The notes below the pieces were generated by a model. It had not been told where the DNA came from, ran no database searches, and saw only the letters and a list, made by a program, of their open reading frames with translations. From NCBI GenBank assembly GCA_007375535.1, contig VMEM01000004.1, positions 22,545 to 86,544 on the forward strand: 64,000 nucleotides of DNA, given 5' to 3'. Position numbers and translations under genes: made by a program. The stretch comes from Parcubacteria group bacterium LiPW_41 (GTDB lineage: Bacteria; Patescibacteriota; Minisyncoccia; UBA6257; GWB1-50-10). Below are positions 6,073-57,228 of this stretch, piece after piece (position 1 is the stretch's first letter; every line of letters begins with the position of its first letter).

Positions 6073-8745
6073 ATGCCTCAATTCAATAAATTTACTATTA
6101 AAACACAAGAAGCATTACAAAGCGCTCAGGATATGGCGATGCGAGAAAACCATGGGGAGTTAAAAGGGCTCCATGTGTTACTTATGTTGTTAGATGACGA
6201 ATCAACACTTGTTCGTCCTATTCTTGTTCGTGCAAATGTAAATGTTGGTGGATTGATTTCCCGCGTTGAAGATGCGGTACTTCATTTACCAAAAATATTT
6301 CAAGGAATTGGAAATACTGGACAAATGTATTTGTCTCCAGAGCTTGTTCGAATTTTAGATAGATCAGGAGAGATTGCTCGAGCTGAGCAAGATGATTTTA
6401 TTTCATGTGAACACGTGTTGCTTGCAATTGCAGATTTCCCTTCGGTTGCACAGGAATTACTTTCACAATTTGGTGTAAGAAAAGAAGCACTTCTTAAGGC
6501 GTTTCATGAGGTGCGTGGATCAATGCGAGTAACTGACGAGACCCCTGAAAATAAATTTCAAACATTGGAAAAATATGCGATTAACATCACCGAAAAAGCT
6601 CGCGCAGGAAAATTGGATCCAGTAATTGGGAGAGAAGAGGAGTTGCGTCGTTTGATGCAGATTCTTTCTCGTCGAACAAAAAATAATCCAGTGCTTATTG
6701 GAGAACCTGGTGTGGGAAAGACGGCAATTGTTGAGGGACTCGCGCAGCGTATTGTTTCAAATGATGTTCCTGAACCACTCAAAAATAAAGAGGTGGTAAT
6801 GCTTGATTTGGGTTCACTTATTGCGGGGACAAAGTTTCGTGGAGAGTTTGAGGATCGTCTCAAGGCTTTTTTGAAGGAGGTACAAAGCGCCGAGGGAAAA
6901 ATTTTGTTGTTTATCGACGAGATTCATATGATTGTGGGTGCAGGAGCGGCAGAAGGTGCGATTGATGCGTCAAATTTGTTGAAGCCAGCACTTGCACGCG
7001 GTGAGCTCCACGCAATTGGAGCAACAACACTCAAAGAATATCAAAAACATATCGAAAAAGATGCGGCGCTCGAACGAAGATTTCAGCCAATTGTAGTTGA
7101 TGAGCCATCAATTGATGATTCGATTTCTATTTTAAGGGGATTGAAAGAAAAATATGAAATGCATCATGGACTTAAAATTTCTGATGAAGCAATTGTTTCA
7201 GCGGTAAATCTTTCTGCTCGATATATTACCGATCGTTTCCTTCCTGATAAGGCGGTAGATTTGATTGATGAGGCTTCAGCAGCTCGTCGACTTGAGTCAG
7301 AGAGTATGCCAACAGAGCTTGATAAAATCAGGCGCGAGATTACACGACTTGAGATTGAAAAATCAGCACTCGTGAGCGAGCGGACATCAAAAAAGGCAAC
7401 CGACAGGATGAAAGAGGTAGAGAATGAGCTGCAGGAACTCAAGAAAAAAAATGATGAGATATCTGGTCAGTGGCACAATGAAAAAGTAACATTTGAGAAG
7501 TTTCACACATTGAGAAAAAAAATGGATGACCTTCGTCGCGAAGCAGAAATTGCTGAACGTGAGGGAAATTTTGATCGTGTAGCAAAAATTACTTATGGGG
7601 AGCTTCCAATTGCAGAAAAAGAGTATAAGGCATTTGAAAAAAAATACTTTTTGATTGAGGAAAAAGGTGGAAAGAAAAAAACAAAGAAAGGTTCTGAGCC
7701 ACATCGGTTTATTAAAGAAACAATTGATGAACAAGACATTGCGGGTGTTGTTTCTCGTTGGACGGGAATTCCTGTTTCAAAAATGTTGGAGTCTGAGATG
7801 AATAAGCTTTCTCGACTTGATGAAGAATTAATGAAGAGGGTGGTAGGACAGAAAGAGGCAATTTCTGCTGTTGCTCGCGCACTTCGAAGATCGCGTGCGG
7901 GGCTTTCCGATGAGGATAGGCCAATGGGGTCGTTTATCTTCCTTGGTCCAACTGGCGTTGGAAAAACAGAGCTTGCAAAGACGCTTGCAGAATTTATGTT
8001 CAACGACGAAAAGGCACTCGTGCGTGTTGATATGTCGGAATACACTGAGCGTCATGCAGTTGCTCGTCTCATTGGCTCTCCTCCGGGATATGTGGGACAC
8101 GAAGAGGGGGGACAACTTACGCAAATCGTTCGTCACCGACCATATAGTTTGATTTTGTTTGATGAAATTGAAAAAGCACATCCTGAAGTATTTAATATAT
8201 TACTTCAAGTACTCGACAATGGACGACTCACCGACGGGAAGGGGAAGACGGTGAATTTTAGAAACACTGTCATCATCCTTACTTCAAATGTTGGGAGCGC
8301 CTATTTTAAGGAACTTTCGCGTTTGGGATTTGGAACAAACGAAAAAGAAAAAGCAGTCCGCGAGCAAGAAGAACAGTTCCGAGAAGGAGTTCAAGAAGCG
8401 CTCAAAGAAACGTTTCGTCCTGAGTTTTTAAATCGTTTGGATGAGGTGGTGATATTTAATTCACTCAAGAAAGAAGCAATAGAAGAGATTATCGATATTC
8501 AACTTGCACGCGTCGCAGAACGTCTCAAAATAAAAAATATAAGTATTGTGGTGAAGCCAGCTATTAAGGCATACTTAAGTGAAGAGGGATTTGATCCCGA
8601 TTATGGCGCGCGCCCTATCAAACGGTTAATTGAGAAGGTGATTGTTGACGCGCTTGCAGATAAAATCATTCGTGGCGAAGTTAATGAAGGTCAAAAACTT
8701 ACTATCTCGCTTTCAAAAGATCGTAGAGTGGTCATTAGTCGCTAA
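6073..8745 (+). CDS. clpB: ATP-dependent chaperone ClpB
   Basis: 890 aa; Clp N domain, two AAA+ modules ([18 protein letters not shown]; [16 protein letters not shown]), long middle coiled-coil, sensor motifs. Confidence 0.95.
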
Positions 8746-18147: not shown

Positions 18148-18808
18148 GAAATAGTTCTTTTTTAAGACCTAAAAGGAACCATATGGTCATAAGTCCGTGT
18201 TTTAGTGGAAAAAGTTTTGAGTCCCCAGTTCTCGGAAAATAGGGGATGTGGTATTCCCCAAACTTTATATGTGGGGAGAGTGCTGCGCGTATTTTTATTT
18301 CTTGAGAAAGTGGCATGTCTCCACTTTTGAGTGGAAGATGTTTCAATGCATCTTTTTTAAAGACCCACATTCCTGACCACGAGTCTTGAAGTTTGATGCT
18401 AAATAAAAGATTGGTAAAGATTGTAAAAGCAATATTTCCAAGTCCTCGAATAAAAGGTTCTGATCCTTTGGAAAAAGGAATCCTGCTCGCAGAAAGGAAA
18501 TCTAGGTTGTTTTCAAAAAAATACTTAAGTAGTTTCGGAATTTCTTCGGGTGAATATTGTCCGTCTGCATCAAGGGTGACAATAACATCTCCATCTACCG
18601 ATTCAAATCCCTTTTGGTACGCATATCCGTATCCTTTTTTAAATTCCTTAACGACACGAGCTCCAAGTTTTTGTGCTACTTCGGCACTTTTGTCGGTTGA
18701 ATTGTTGTCTACGACAAGTATCTCGTTCACCTCCTTTGGCATTGACTGAATAACGCCTCCTATAGATTTTTCTTCATTATAACAAGGAATTACCGCGGTT
18801 ATTTTCAT
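18131..18808 (-). CDS. GT2 glycosyltransferase (polyprenyl-phosphate sugar synthase, ArnC/DPM-like)
   Basis: ITAVIPCYNEEKSI...VVDNNSTDKS...TLDADGQ; overlaps the downstream GT-C gene by 17 nt, consistent with an operon. Confidence 0.8.
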   Translation of the reverse strand: MKITAVIPCYNEEKSIGGVIQSMPKEVNEILVVDNNSTDKSAEVAQKLGARVVKEFKKGYGYAYQKGFESVDGDVIVTLDADGQYSPEEIPKLLKYFFENNLDFLSASRIPFSKGSEPFIRGLGNIAFTIFTNLLFSIKLQDSWSGMWVFKKDALKHLPLKSGDMPLSQEIKIRAALSPHIKFGEYHIPYFPRTGDSKLFPLKHGLMTIWFLLGLKKELFHEKRK

Positions 18809-26337: not shown

Positions 26338-27882
26338 TTATTCAACCATTGTTTTTGGATTAATTTTTTGGAGCAATGGTTCTTTTTGTAAAACGAGAAG
26401 TCCAAGATATATGACTCCTCCAAATCCTATAGTGAATACTACGTGCGGGGAAATAAGAGAAATAAGTAGGCACGCAATTCCCATTCCAACCGATGCGAGA
26501 ATTATTTTCTTTATGTGAGGAAATAATGAAAAAGGAATAATTTTTTTCATACTGATCCAAAGCCACCCATTTGAAAAAAGTTGTGCAATAAGTGTTGCAA
26601 AGGCGGATCCCGTGACGCCATAGGGGGGAATAAGTAAGAGATCGAGGATTAGATTTGCAACCGCGCCAAGTCCATATGCAACAATAAATGTTTTTTGTTT
26701 GTGATGTGCAAATAAAATATTTCCTAAAATTGTTCCCGTAAACACAAGTGGTACGGTAAGGAGTAATACCTGAAATGGCATAGAGGCATCAATAAATTTA
26801 TTTCCAAAAATAAAAACTGTAAGAGGTATACCAACAACAATGCCACCCACAAGAACGGGGAACGCAAACATCATAGACAGAGAGAGTGCCTTTTCTACTG
26901 TTCGTTTCACCTTTTCAACTTTTCCTTCCGCGACATACCTGCTCACTATTGGAAAAATGCTTGCTGCAAAAAGTGCTGGAAGAACATAGAGGAACATTAC
27001 TGGGCGCTGAGCAGCACCATAGAGTCCTAAGTCGTGAGCGGTGCGAAACCAACCAATAACTAATGTATCTACATTAATCATTAAATTACCAAAGAGCCCC
27101 ATTAGTGCAAATGGCCACGAACTAAAAAACACTAATCGTGCATACTGCAGGCTGAAATTACTTAAAAGTCCAGAAAAATCTTTTCGCAGTATATAGAACG
27201 TGATGAGTGTTCCAATTATTATTCCGGTTGTGTAGCCATAAGCTAAAAATTTTGCTGAGGGAAAAACAAGCAATGCAGCGATTCCAAGAATAGTAATAAG
27301 TCCATCGGTAATAATGTTTGCTCCCGACTCAATTTGCATCTTGTTTTTTGCTCGAGCAATAGAAAAGGCAAATCCACGAAGAGAATCAAACGCGAGAAGC
27401 ACGCTTACCGTAAGAAGAAGTTCTTGAATTCCTTTTACATTTGTGAGATATGGTCCCACAAACATAGTGATGCCTATGGTGACGGTAAGTGCAATAAGCT
27501 TAAGAATAAATGTAGTGGATGCGTAAATCTTGGTTTTCTCTGGTTCTTGCACCGCCTGACGAGTAAGTATTCCAGAGAGACCCATATCAGAAAATACTCC
27601 AAAAAGACCCGCAAAACTTAATGCGTATGAAAAAACACCGTATCCTTCGGTGCCCAATATGCGTGCTGCATACATTATCATAATTGCCCGAATGGAACGA
27701 CTTACAATTGTTCCAAGGGTGAGCCAAAATGTATTTTTTGCTATTGTCTGCGATTCTGTTTTGTTCTCAAAAAGGAATGACTTAATCTTCGGTATCATAG
27801 ATATATCCCCATTGTACCCGTCTTTCCCCAAAAACTGAATATCTCCACTATTTTCCAAAAGAATATAAATTGATAAATACAT
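26338..27882 (-). CDS. Wzx-type polysaccharide flippase (MOP superfamily)
   Basis: 14 TM helices; N-terminal NTFWLTLGTIVSRSIRAIMIMYAARILG motif of polysaccharide biosynthesis proteins. Confidence 0.75.
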   Translation of the reverse strand: MYLSIYILLENSGDIQFLGKDGYNGDISMIPKIKSFLFENKTESQTIAKNTFWLTLGTIVSRSIRAIMIMYAARILGTEGYGVFSYALSFAGLFGVFSDMGLSGILTRQAVQEPEKTKIYASTTFILKLIALTVTIGITMFVGPYLTNVKGIQELLLTVSVLLAFDSLRGFAFSIARAKNKMQIESGANIITDGLITILGIAALLVFPSAKFLAYGYTTGIIIGTLITFYILRKDFSGLLSNFSLQYARLVFFSSWPFALMGLFGNLMINVDTLVIGWFRTAHDLGLYGAAQRPVMFLYVLPALFAASIFPIVSRYVAEGKVEKVKRTVEKALSLSMMFAFPVLVGGIVVGIPLTVFIFGNKFIDASMPFQVLLLTVPLVFTGTILGNILFAHHKQKTFIVAYGLGAVANLILDLLLIPPYGVTGSAFATLIAQLFSNGWLWISMKKIIPFSLFPHIKKIILASVGMGIACLLISLISPHVVFTIGFGGVIYLGLLVLQKEPLLQKINPKTMVE

Positions 27883-27884
27883 TT

Positions 27885-27920
27885 GTTAATACTTACCGGC
27901 GACCGCCGGTAAGTATTAAC
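27885..27920. repeat. 36-bp perfect palindrome A1 (GTTAATACTTACCGGCG-AC-CGCCGGTAAGTATTAAC) in divergent promoter region
   Basis: 17-bp perfect arms; second copy at 28566-28601 differs by a symmetric (compensated) T/A change. Confidence 0.7.
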
Positions 27921-27956
27921 ATCACAAGTGATATAATAAATAAGCAAAGAAAAAGA

Positions 27957-28541
27957 ATGAAAGAGAAGATAAATACAATAAAAAGGAAAAAGAGACGATG
28001 GGGGACAAAATCAATGCTTATTCTTGAATTATTGAAGGAGGGGGCATTTTGTACTGCTGATCTGTTTGGGGAAATGTTTTTAAATCCAATAACACCAAAA
28101 CAACGATATGCACGTGCAATTTTTGGACGACAAATAAAACATGAAGAATTTCACATTCCAAGAAATACCAAGATCACACTGTATAGGACGTTATATAACT
28201 TAGAAAAACAAGGATTAGTAGAAAAGAAGAATGGAGCGTGGGAGATAACGCGTGACGGAAAAGAAAATATTATAGAATCTTTACAGATAAATAGGGGGAG
28301 AAAATATATTTGTAAAAAATCTGAATACTATACAATTGTTGCTTTTGATATACCAGAAAAAATAAAAGCGAAGCGAGAGTGGTTGAGAGAGGCACTTGTG
28401 AATATGGAATTCTCTTTATTACAACAAAGCGTTTGGATAGCAAAAAAGAAAATTCCCGGAGAGTTTATTAAAGATCTACATAATATGAGAATTTCTAAGT
28501 TTGTTCATATTTTTGAGGTGACCAAACACGGAACGATATAA
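27957..28541 (+). CDS. winged-helix transcriptional regulator, PaaX-like (C-terminal Cas2/VapD-like ferredoxin-fold segment)
   Basis: N-terminal wHTH-like LILELLKEG...LYRTLYNLEKQGLVEK; C-terminal TIVAFDIPEKIKAKREWLREALVNMEFSLLQQSVWIAK pattern; ATG 27957 preferred because the track start 27870 runs through the palindrome. Confidence 0.4.
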   Translation: MKEKINTIKRKKRRWGTKSMLILELLKEGAFCTADLFGEMFLNPITPKQRYARAIFGRQIKHEEFHIPRNTKITLYRTLYNLEKQGLVEKKNGAWEITRDGKENIIESLQINRGRKYICKKSEYYTIVAFDIPEKIKAKREWLREALVNMEFSLLQQSVWIAKKKIPGEFIKDLHNMRISKFVHIFEVTKHGTI

Positions 28542-28565
28542 TACAATATAAAAGTAATATTATTT

Positions 28566-28601
28566 GTTAATACATACCGGCGACCGCCGGTATGTATTAA
28601 C
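28566..28601. repeat. 36-bp perfect palindrome A2 (GTTAATACATACCGGCG-AC-CGCCGGTATGTATTAAC)
   Basis: direct repeat of A1 including the shared flank atttgttaatac...; lies between convergent genes. Confidence 0.7.
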
Positions 28602-28682
28602 ATGTGCGGGCACACTTCAATATAGAACTAGAAAATAAAGAGAGCTCACCGATTCGGCGAGTTCTCTTTATTTGTGTGTGAT

Positions 28683-30008
28683 TTAAATAAGTTTTACGAA
28701 TATCATTTTCACTGTTTTAAGAACAATGAAGTCGTCGGTGATGGTTGAACGATGTTTGATGTAATAAATATCGTATGCGAGTTTTTCTTTTGAATCCTCA
28801 ACCGATGCGCCATAGCGGTAATTTACTTGTGCGTGTCCAGTGAATCCTGGGCGAATGATGTGGCGAATATTATAAAACGGAATTTCTTTTTCAAGGGTCT
28901 TGGTGAATTCAGGGCGTTCTGGGCGTGGGCCAACGAGTGAGATGTCTCCGCGAAGCATATTCCATGCTTGTGGAAGTTCGTCGAGATGTGTATATCTCAA
29001 AAACTTTCCAACTTTTGTGGTGCGGTCATCATTTTGTGTTGACCATTGTGCACCATCTTTTTCTGCGTCGGCGCGCATACTTCGGAATTTATAAAGTGTA
29101 AACGGAACATTATTTTTTCCTATTCGTGTTTGTGAATAAATAACTGCACCTCGTGAAGAAAGTTTTATAAGAAGTGCGATAAGAAGTGAGGGGATAAAGA
29201 AAATTAAAATAATTAGAATTGCAGCAGCGATGTCTGTGGTGCGCTTTACCATATCATAAATTGGTCTACGAACGGTGATGTGTTCGATAAACCAACTTTC
29301 GTCGAGTTCATCAATTGGTTCTTTTTCAAACACTGATTCGTAAAAATTTGGGAATGTCATCACCGAGGTTTCAAGTGGAAGAAGTTTATAGAGTGCTGAA
29401 AGTGTCGTTGGGTCGGTGAGCGCATTTTTTTGTATAACAATTAATCGTGAATCTGTCTTTGTTATTATCTCAGGAAGAGATTCAAGCGCTTCTTTTGTCA
29501 CCACTTCAATCCATTTAGTGACGTTGAATCCAACCTGTGGGTTTTCTTTTAAAAATTGAACAGTAGAAGAGAGGAGTGGAGTTGATCCGAGAATGATGGT
29601 ATTCGCAGCACTTCGAACAAAAAGTGTTCGAACGCGCATTCTCCAGAAATAAAGAAAAAGGAATGAAACAACCCCAAAGATAATGAGGTTGGTCTTTGGC
29701 ATAACTCCGAACACGGTAGGGAACAAATAGAAGCAAATCACCGAAAGCCCAGAGGCAAGAATGATGCCCCCAAACAGTGCCTTAATGAGCCATTCCCGCC
29801 CTCTGAATGCCTTGTAGCGGTAGAGATCGCCCCAATAGAAGACTATGAGCCATAAGACGAAGACAACAGAGAATGGAACAACGTGGAGATTCCAGTTTTC
29901 ATAAAAAAGGCCACTATCGCGGTAACGAATGAGAAGGGTAACCGCAAGGGCCACATACAGCACTATGATATCTCCAATAAGGAGAAGGGATTTTTTGTAG
30001 ATTCCCAT
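28683..30008 (-). CDS. initiating polyprenyl-phosphate glycosylphosphotransferase (WbaP/WsaP-like bacterial sugar transferase)
   Basis: C-terminal Bac_transf motifs RIGKNNVPFTLYKFRSM, DELPQAWNMLRGDISLVGPRPERPEF; N-terminal TM bundle. Confidence 0.85.
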   Translation of the reverse strand: MGIYKKSLLLIGDIIVLYVALAVTLLIRYRDSGLFYENWNLHVVPFSVVFVLWLIVFYWGDLYRYKAFRGREWLIKALFGGIILASGLSVICFYLFPTVFGVMPKTNLIIFGVVSFLFLYFWRMRVRTLFVRSAANTIILGSTPLLSSTVQFLKENPQVGFNVTKWIEVVTKEALESLPEIITKTDSRLIVIQKNALTDPTTLSALYKLLPLETSVMTFPNFYESVFEKEPIDELDESWFIEHITVRRPIYDMVKRTTDIAAAILIILIFFIPSLLIALLIKLSSRGAVIYSQTRIGKNNVPFTLYKFRSMRADAEKDGAQWSTQNDDRTTKVGKFLRYTHLDELPQAWNMLRGDISLVGPRPERPEFTKTLEKEIPFYNIRHIIRPGFTGHAQVNYRYGASVEDSKEKLAYDIYYIKHRSTITDDFIVLKTVKMIFVKLI

Positions 30009-55998: not shown

Positions 55999-56071
55999 TG
56001 CCCCCACTAGGATTCGAACCTAGGACCGTTTGCTTAAGAGGCAACTGCTCTACCAGCTGAGCTATAGGGGC
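55999..56071 (-). tRNA. tRNA-Lys (anticodon CUU)
   Basis: reverse complement GCCCCTA-TA-GCTC-AGCTGGTA-GAGC-A-GTTGC-CTCTTAA-GCAAA-CGGTC-CTAGG-TTCGAAT-CCTAG-TGGGGGC-A folds as a cloverleaf; CCA not encoded. Confidence 0.75.
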
Positions 56072-56683: not shown

Positions 56684-57228
56684 GAACATGTGAGTCCATT
56701 CCATGGTATAATACACTGTGTTATGCCAGAAAAAAGGACTTATGCCGACAGGGCTGAATATATAAAACAGGCAGTCACTAAGAGAAGAAGAAAACTCAAA
56801 GAGATGCTTGTTGAATATAAAGGTGGAAAATGTGTTGTTTGCAAATATAAGAAGACTTCTTGGGCGTTAGATTTACACCATATTGATCCGATAAAAAAGG
56901 ATTTTAATATGTCTGTGCGTGGTCTCACGCGATCTTGGGAAAGATTAAAACAAGAGGCGGATAAGTGTGTTCTTCTTTGTGCAAATTGTCATAGGGAGAT
57001 TCATGCCGGCATTACGCAGCTTCCGAAAGCAATTTCGGTTGAAAAACGAAGTGAATTCGGGGAAACCCAAAAAGGGCAATCCCGAGCCAAGCCTCTAAAA
57101 AAGAGGAAGGTGTAGAGACTATCTCGAAAGAGAGTACTGTTTCATATTTATTTATGAAATGGGAAGCGCTTCGCATCCCTCAGGGATGATGATATAGTCC
57201 ATCCTTTATGGAAACATAGAGATAAATG
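56684..57228 (+). mobile_element. intron-like insertion in tRNA anticodon loop (most consistent with a group I intron) carrying an HNH homing-endonuclease ORF
   Basis: 545 nt between tRNA halves; 5' exon ends with U, insertion ends with G; internal ORF with HNH motif; structured 3' tail (ggaagcgcttcgcatccc / cagggatgatgatatagtccatcc). Confidence 0.5.
56723..57115 (+). CDS. HNH endonuclease (intron-encoded homing endonuclease candidate)
   Basis: CVVCKY....LDLHHIDP.........CANCHREIH is the canonical HNH zinc-finger/catalytic His-Asn-His core; basic C-terminal tail. Confidence 0.75.
   Translation: MPEKRTYADRAEYIKQAVTKRRRKLKEMLVEYKGGKCVVCKYKKTSWALDLHHIDPIKKDFNMSVRGLTRSWERLKQEADKCVLLCANCHREIHAGITQLPKAISVEKRSEFGETQKGQSRAKPLKKRKV

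Follow-up and report, generated by a model that had tools for sequence, protein, structure and literature searches.

The window analysed here is a stretch of 64,000 nt of Parcubacteria group bacterium LiPW_41, an uncultured member of the Patescibacteria with a reduced genome (GenBank assembly GCA_007375535.1, contig VMEM01000004.1, positions 22,545 to 86,544, forward strand). Two long perfect palindromes stand in it, one on either side of a single regulator gene. The palindromes are real, conserved in position and private to their gene, and overlap a promoter; the protein encoded between them is PaaX-like. They are probably its cognate duplex DNA operators, to which it would bind as a dimeric repressor. 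An autoregulatory operator on both sides of its own gene was one of several readings offered in a preliminary description of the locus. It is the best supported one, by the PaaX-like protein, the position of the upstream copy on the promoter, the gene-specific layout throughout the family and the operator geometry of PaaX.

Palindrome pair and promoter region

27884..27921. Palindrome copy 1, TGTTAATACTTACCGGCG-AC-CGCCGGTAAGTATTAACA; 18+2+18, centre CGACCG (sequence read and repeat finder).
27862..27889, minus strand. Predicted promoter of the divergent flippase gene; -35 TTAACA within the left arm of copy 1, 16-nt spacer, -10 TATATT.
27929..27937, plus strand. Extended -10 TGaTATAAT of the regulator promoter, 7 nt past copy 1 (sequence read).
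27957..28541, plus strand. PaaX-like regulator gene, 194 aa (Pfam, AlphaFold2, Foldseek).
28565..28602. Palindrome copy 2, TGTTAATACATACCGGCG-AC-CGCCGGTATGTATTAACA; 18+2+18, starting 23 nt past the regulator stop codon (sequence read and repeat finder).

Both copies are perfect 38-bp palindromes according to the repeat finder; the symmetry reported earlier holds, and the arms are one base longer than the 17+2+17 then given. Between the copies only two bases change, T>A at 27893 and A>T at 27912, at mirrored places of the two arms, as had been noted. Together with their common flanks the palindromes form the direct repeat of about 42 bp described around the gene, which the repeat finder places at 27881-27922 and 28562-28603 (42 nt, 95% identity, 681 nt from start to start, 639 bp enclosed). 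Dinucleotide shuffles give 0 to 0.14 expected matches each for the 18-nt core and the 17-nt half-site; the half-site was observed 4 times. No further copy is present in the 64-kb window at up to 3 mismatches. Selection on symmetry, the explanation first given for the mirrored change, is plausible without being the only one; such changes can also arise through template switching or hairpin-templated correction, with no selection involved. In an Rfam scan of the window, no family covers the palindromes at the gathering threshold, and the only matches are to tRNA and a group I intron.

The centre of copy 1 lies at about -41 from the inferred transcription start of the regulator, so that copy 1 covers the -35 region. 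The flippase promoter scores 10/12 in a consensus scan and is a consensus match only. Because copy 1 lies over both -35 regions, a bound protein would repress. The dimer is proposed to read a long symmetric site, composed in each half of an inner block common to the family and a gene-private outer block 12-17 bp from the dyad. Occupied copy 1 would keep RNA polymerase off the regulator's own promoter by steric exclusion and so repress its synthesis, the way PaaX acts at Px; the flippase gene would probably be repressed too, copy 1 covering the divergent -35. Copy 2 is most likely a second, auxiliary operator, neither promoter nor terminator. Its role could be to loop the 681-bp gene together with copy 1, or to close off the unit on its 3' side as a protein roadblock or boundary.

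Regulator protein

Protein of two domains, a PadR-like winged helix (residues ~17-110) and a Cas2-like PaaX_M domain (~120-192). The latter is matched by Pfam PaaX_M (PF20803), the central Cas2-like domain of PaaX, with E 6.1e-13 and 49.1 bits against a cut-off of 24 (residues 126-192). The N-terminal half gives only sub-threshold Pfam matches, to PadR (residues 72-102) and HVO_A0261_N, and no match to the PaaX N-domain. In a profile search of the PDB, weak PadR/MarR winged helix-turn-helix (wHTH) matches are obtained (E ~0.06), and PaaX is not reached by sequence. The AlphaFold2 model has a predicted local distance difference test score (pLDDT) of 76.8 overall, ~90 in the C-terminal domain and 55-87 in the wHTH. 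The top Foldseek match of this model is E. coli PaaX 8a39 (prob 1.0), followed by M. tuberculosis Rv0674, PadR/LmrR and Cas2. PadR/LmrR align to the N-terminal half, and Cas2 chains to the C-terminal half (root-mean-square deviation ~3.5 Å over ~77 columns).

Pfam gives no match to the PaaX_C effector domain, and the regulator ends at residue 194, directly past PaaX_M. NCBIfam TIGR02277 (PaaX) scores 12.6 bits against a cut-off of 264, and TIGR01573 (Cas2) 17.3 bits against 24.5; PADLOC returns only weak Cas2 (E ~1e-3), Csa3 and wHTH matches. The Cas2 hallmark motifs are kept in the regulator family, FDIPE and SVW being invariant. Judged from its model, the regulator is a minimal PaaX-type protein, a winged helix with a Cas2-like dimerisation domain and without PaaX_C. 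A wHTH protein with a Cas2-like C-terminus had been recognised before, and correctly; the PaaX_C label given to that terminus is replaced by PaaX_M (PF20803). At 50% identity the family falls into 814 clusters with E<=1e-30 and 2,669 with E<=1e-10; its 150 best matches are all ~180-215 aa. Among GTDB species genomes only those of Patescibacteria were found to have it, in many cases as several paralogues.

Site-gene-site architecture of the family

Eighty loci with regulator family members from GTDB species genomes, 1.11 Mb in all, were scanned with our own scripts. Perfect palindromes with arms of at least 11 occur at most 200 bp upstream of 38/92 genes and equally often (38/92) downstream, against a background of 0.19 per kb. 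Those centred CG-R-Y-CG number 93, with 77 of them no more than 250 bp from a family gene; of those with other centres, 9 are near and 104 far. A scan admitting imperfect arms (CGRYCG centre, at least 11/15 pairs, within 200 bp of the gene) finds an upstream site in 68/79 genes, a downstream site in 66/81 and sites on both sides in 56/77. Elsewhere, 16 CGRYCG sites occur in 1.11 Mb (0.014 per kb). By these counts the pair in the window exemplifies a conserved site-gene-site module.

Identity is 84% between the two copies of one gene and 44% between copies of different genes. The inner block is common to the family (..ACG-R / Y-CGT..); the outer arm sequence is specific to the gene. In L062, a locus with two paralogues, each of these has a palindrome pair of its own. 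Relative to transcription, the central dinucleotide can read either AC or GT, and in L091 the two copies are in inverted orientation. A downstream site is present in 37/48 genes with a co-directional next gene and in 26/30 with a convergent one; being independent of the orientation of the neighbour, the downstream copy is therefore part of the regulator's own 3' end and not of the neighbour's promoter.

In the Nomurabacteria-type clade the extended -10 (TGgTAAACT or TGgTAAGAT) falls within the right arm of the upstream copy. It lies 5-7 nt before the regulator ATG in L022, L027, L039, L048, L049, L054, L058, L069 and L086, which implies leaderless regulator transcripts in this clade. The invariant T6, the final T of the -10, is missing from the downstream copies of these genes. 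Only the upstream copy is thus part of a promoter.

A nested arrangement is present in L026, where a palindrome X flanks the regulator on both sides and a CGATCG-centred palindrome Y stands directly upstream of the gene (7565-7599, 7785-7819, 8631-8665). It may reflect cross-regulation between paralogues.

Orthologous loci

In the orthologues L001 (91% identity), L004/L005 (61%) and L006 (58%), the order flippase / regulator / ... / Bac_transf is kept within a polysaccharide cluster. All of them have a perfect palindrome directly upstream of the regulator, diverged in sequence with every change mirrored. It ends 4-7 nt before the extended -10.

L001, upstream. TGTTAACACTTACCGGCGACCGCCGGTAAGTGTTAACA, followed by TGaTATAAT.
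L006, upstream. GGTGATAACAGTTACCGACGGTCGTCGGTAACTGTTATCACC, followed by TGgTATACT.
L004, upstream. TCTGTACCCCTATAACGACGGCCGTCGTTATAGGGGTACAGA, followed by TGgTATAAT.

The downstream copy is a 46-bp perfect palindrome in L001 and is present in L006 with one G.T on the sense strand. In L004 a co-directional GtrA gene comes after the regulator, and the downstream copy is absent. About 3.6 kb downstream of this 61% orthologue lies a gene of the bAvd / 23S_rRNA_IVP type (L004 10193-10501); bAvd is an accessory protein of diversity-generating retroelements.

Duplex DNA site or hairpin

Family-wide, pairing is ~100% at 2-4 from the dyad, 77-85% at 5-11 and 91-99% at 12-17, with a background of ~33% beyond 21. 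The zone at 12-17 is strongly symmetric yet variable between loci. Two constrained blocks with a looser middle are more in line with protein contacts on duplex DNA than with a uniform stem.

The palindromes could instead act in folded form, as RNA hairpins (3' untranslated region (UTR) or 5' leader) or as DNA hairpins or cruciforms, for processing, stabilisation or recognition by the wHTH-Cas2-like protein, with pairing and not duplex sequence being conserved. This is considered rather unlikely. In the window clade, arms of 18-23 nt are perfect throughout, and all changes in them are mirrored. As RNA the hairpins are strong, at -27 to -28 kcal/mol, and a C(GRYC)G tetraloop would result from the conserved centre. 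Copy 2 and the sites 3' of the giant gene (see below) lie between stop codon and terminator and are therefore transcribed. RNases occur among the relatives of Cas2 and VapD. However, in each of the four orthologues the conserved -10 comes after copy 1, which is therefore outside the regulator's transcript. The mid-arm drop in pairing and the free orientation of the central dinucleotide also speak against a folded form. G.T pairs are almost absent from the ~75 perfect sites. The single G.T of L006 copy 2 is on the sense strand, as a folded RNA would allow, but wobble-compatible mismatches in imperfect sites are sense-compatible in 35 cases and antisense-compatible in 31, and the strand-bias test for an RNA stem gave no net G.U bias. 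The T.G excess in imperfect sites is due to the TG of the extended -10.

Neighbouring genes and terminator

26338..27882, minus strand. Divergent neighbour, Wzx/MurJ-type polysaccharide flippase gene (Pfam Polysacc_synt, E 5e-36, match from residue 48).
28633..28673. Canonical bidirectional intrinsic terminator, A-run, GC-cored hairpin and T-run (repeat finder and terminator scan; -24.7 and -22.6 kcal/mol).
28683..30008, minus strand. Convergent neighbour, Bac_transf gene for an initiating phosphoglycosyl transferase (Pfam PF02397, E 5e-62).

The flippase gene as listed begins at the start of the longest open reading frame (ORF). Its real start is probably downstream of it, at ATG 27798 or at a TTG near 27833; flippase gene calls in L001, L004 and L006 begin further downstream. 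Copy 1 had been placed in a divergent promoter region, and so not simply a terminator, and copy 2 between convergent genes. Both placements agree with the gene map, in which copy 1 is flanked by the flippase (minus) and the regulator (plus), and copy 2 by the regulator (plus) and Bac_transf (minus).

A generic family of intrinsic hairpin terminators, flanking the gene by chance, is hardly tenable as an explanation of the pair. It would suit the convergent position of copy 2, the strong RNA hairpins, several dispersed copies at 3' ends in a relative (see below) and a terminator-scan match of copy 1 on the minus strand, its T-rich tail being weak. However, copy 1 lies between divergent starts, with no minus-strand ORF ending upstream of it. 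The flanks of family palindromes are T-rich 5' and A-rich 3', with the T-run 5' and the A-run 3', a polarity opposite to that of an intrinsic terminator, and neither copy in the window has a T-run 3' of it on the sense strand. A canonical terminator of A-run, hairpin and T-run separately follows 3' copies, namely copy 2 of the window and the sites after the giant genes of the window and L016. Given the separate terminator at 28633-28673, copy 2 is not needed as one. In the loci, which were selected by protein, CGRYCG palindromes are nearly confined to family genes (77 near against 9 far). Terminators were rejected on flank polarity, the separate canonical terminator and the divergent context of copy 1.

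Giant surface-protein operon and its palindromes

31035..35986, plus strand. Surface-protein operon of a small (172 aa) and a giant gene (1470 aa, LTD and PKD domains).
30617..30653. PAL2 copy 1, 18+1+18, centre GTC-G-GAC; past a canonical terminator and 23 nt upstream of the TATAAT before the operon.
35994..36032. PAL2 copy 2, 19+1+19; 7 nt past the giant-gene stop codon, then a separate terminator hairpin.

The operon is homologous to operons adjoining family regulators in 13 other loci. The palindrome of the regulator also closes the far end of the operon in L040, L061, L079, L088 and L016, in the order site-regulator-site-small-giant-site. In the window, a 78-aa/172-aa/1470-aa operon is bracketed by the PAL2 pair, AATCTGTTGAGGTC-G-GACCTCAACAGATT. 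The two PAL2 copies are near-identical, unrelated to the regulator palindrome and not centred on CGRYCG. L001 conserves PAL2 with a mirrored G>A change, and so does L016, the orthologous locus of the genome of the 58% orthologue. L016 has PAL2 upstream of the operon and the regulator's palindrome downstream. The downstream site, a third regulator palindrome directly past the giant gene, lies at 18279-18316, has the sequence of L013 1628-1665 and carries a mirrored G>A. This swap at the giant-gene 3' end, which keeps position and exchanges sequence, is a further point for the folded form. An ORF at 30097..30588 (163 aa) was considered as a hidden PAL2 regulator and rejected; it has no Pfam match and a membrane-protein-like sequence.

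The recurrence of sites around the operon is also accommodated by a broader reading, which is held with little confidence. The family would be a locus-marking system and not simply a group of autorepressors, with private 34-46-bp palindromes with a CGRYCG core placed at the ends of the own gene and of a neighbouring unit (often the giant LTD/PKD operon), which would make it possible to isolate, loop, silence or exchange the enclosed DNA as one block. A stronger version would have the Cas2-like domain, with the invariant Asp of FDIPE, act on the extruded hairpin, in a REP-RAYT-like partnership (repetitive extragenic palindromes and their associated tyrosine transposases) on a Cas2 fold.

Dispersed copies and the question of mobility

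Metagenome contigs were scanned with a degenerate pattern that required exact matches and could miss diverged copies. Contig Ga0074198_1000007 (746,631 bp), which carries the 91% orthologue, has 5 palindrome copies, the flanking pair and 3 dispersed ones. One dispersed copy stands between convergent cobalamin-adenosyltransferase and NUDIX genes; the other two lie between tandem genes, in a common 92-nt module of 96% identity (L010 1024-1115, L011 1735-1826).

The 92-nt module also holds a second hairpin, ctggcggaagtcggacttccgccag. L011 has an additional palindrome, TGATAATCAAT...ATTGATTATCA, resembling L006 4309-4350. Read together, the hairpins of L010 and L011 would make up a mosaic like the bacterial interspersed mosaic elements (BIME).

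A selfish palindromic element, also suggested in the preliminary description, gains a little from the three extra copies in the 747-kb relative, two of them in an intergenic module. Dozens of copies at unrelated 3' ends across a genome had been named there as the mark of a generic terminator family; 5 copies were found in 747 kb.

A recombination or mobile module bounded by the palindromes (attC, dif-module or REP-RAYT-like) is very improbable. The gene or the giant operon would be excised, inverted or exchanged, with the wHTH-Cas2-like protein as site recognition factor or nuclease. Consistent with it are the 42-nt direct repeats flanking the gene, the occurrence of every family member with its own palindrome pair, the copies bracketing the small and giant genes in L040, L061, L079, L088 and L016, the dispersed copies in one genome with two in a mosaic module, the inverted copies of L091 and the retained Cas2 motifs. 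Synteny, however, is stable from 91% to 58% protein identity, the upstream copy is integrated into the promoter, and only those 5 copies occur in 747 kb. Neither identical paralogous cassettes nor target-site duplications were found, and the arms are gene-specific, not conserved. The Pfam-annotated neighbours (glycosyltransferases, flippase, sugar transferase) include no recombinase, integrase or HUH transposase. The Cas2-like domain is a dimerisation module in PaaX (PMC9493321).

A recombination or cassette boundary, and a cassette present or absent between the flippase and transferase genes of related genomes, had been considered earlier. The regulator is in the same synteny in L001, L004 and L006, and a mobile cassette at this place is rejected for the lineage, in which synteny is kept down to 58% identity. 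A likeness of the arm TGTTAA to dif/Xer or attC cores was dropped, as the arms differ from gene to gene. Among the Pfam-annotated neighbours cas1 is not present; CRISPR arrays were not searched for.

Weighing of the operator assignment

Several observations weigh against the assignment of the palindromes as operators of the regulator. The dispersed copies in Ga0074198_1000007 adjoin unrelated genes, two of them in the common 92-nt module between tandem genes. It is not evident what a classical repressor would gain from sites at 3'/3' junctions and in 3' UTRs. From the swap between PAL2 in the window and the regulator palindrome in L016, any long palindrome may serve at the giant-gene 3' position. 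Perfect arms of 18-23 nt in the window clade are longer than one wHTH and half-site should need. In a partial Mantel test of recognition-helix against site similarity, site similarity tracks overall phylogeny. No recognisable effector domain is found in the regulator by Pfam. The loci also hold 39 perfect, non-terminator-like palindromes of 38-46 bp, without spacer and with other centres (CATG, TATA, TTAA, ACGCGT), for example L018 5750-5789, L037 1007-1048, L075 1247-1288 and L083 2230-2267. Very long perfect palindromes thus seem to be a general feature of Patescibacteria genomes, as far as these loci represent them. Duplex operators of the PaaX-like repressor nevertheless remain the preferred assignment.

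Comparison with known systems

PaaX of the phenylacetate catabolon of E. coli W and Pseudomonas has an N-terminal winged helix followed by a Cas2-like PaaX_M domain, an order also predicted for the window regulator. The E. coli protein has the operator TGATTC(N27)GAATCA and represses its own promoter Px by steric hindrance (PMC9493321). The site in the window has comparable inverted hexamers, TGTTAA-N26-TTAACA against TGATTC-N27-GAATCA, about 27 bp apart, and overlaps a promoter; its binding by the regulator is putative. Autorepression from a site on the own promoter is likewise proposed for the window regulator. It differs from PaaX in the lack of the PaaX_C domain (phenylacetyl-CoA effector), of a Pfam match to the PaaX N-domain and of nearby paa genes. 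It adjoins polysaccharide and giant surface-protein genes. The site in the Patescibacteria family is a perfect palindrome of 38-46 bp with a conserved CGRYCG centre, and a second copy downstream of the gene is the rule.

The lambda CI repressor with OR and OL, and also lac O1/O2 and gal OE/OI, resemble the layout in having sites on both sides of the regulator gene with the upstream one on a promoter, and a distal site that in many loci is without a promoter of its own. They differ from the window in a protein of unrelated fold, and each end of the window gene has a single long palindrome and not an operator cluster; the locus is not a phage immunity region. This comparison concerns site layout alone, and tetramerisation and looping of the window regulator are putative.

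The REP/RAYT system (REPtron) and BIME share with the family a single-copy, vertically inherited gene between two palindromes, a few other intergenic, mostly 3', palindrome positions, and two copies in a mosaic with other hairpins. The flanked protein here is PaaX_M with a wHTH and not an HUH/Y1 (IS200/IS605-like) transposase. Window-type palindromes are perfect and twice as long as REP, and the upstream copy is part of a promoter. They number about 5 copies per genome (5 in the 746,631-bp contig, 2 in the 64-kb window), REP hundreds. Cas2 and VapD resemble the C-terminal domain of the regulator, which has the Cas2 ferredoxin-like fold with a beta1 strand ending in FDI and the motif QQSVW. In contrast to Cas2, a stand-alone protein of ~90-100 aa, the domain is fused to a winged helix in a protein of 194 aa and scores below the Cas2 cut-offs.

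In the literature searched on PaaX with Cas2, on Patescibacteria palindromes and on transcription-factor palindromes of the candidate phyla radiation (CPR), no account of the regulator family or its layout was found. A PaaX-type repressor with its operator is already known; the self-bracketing architecture appears to be new.

Gene regulation in Patescibacteria (CPR), which cannot be cultivated alone and lack most familiar regulators, is nearly unknown. The family provides a concrete regulator-site pair with a simple rule, a CGRYCG core with gene-specific outer arms. Its recurrent link to polysaccharide genes and giant surface-protein operons makes it a testable entry into the regulation of Patescibacteria surface structures. 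Given their LTD and PKD domains, the giant surface proteins plausibly mediate attachment to host cells. Sites at both ends of a transcription unit, 3'/3' junctions included, are unusual for bacterial repressors. If looping or boundary formation is true, the layout would be a new regulatory one; if the hairpin is the ligand, a Cas2-fold protein would be tied to palindromic repeats outside CRISPR.

Other features of the window

56950-57221, plus strand. Group I catalytic intron (Rfam RF00028, 84.8 bits), ~0.9 kb from a tRNA gene at 55999-56071 (minus strand).
61700-61745. Strong inverted repeat, CTTATTAAAACCCCGCCAATCCATGGACTGGCGGGGTTTTAATTAG, with 27-nt arms of 93% complementarity.

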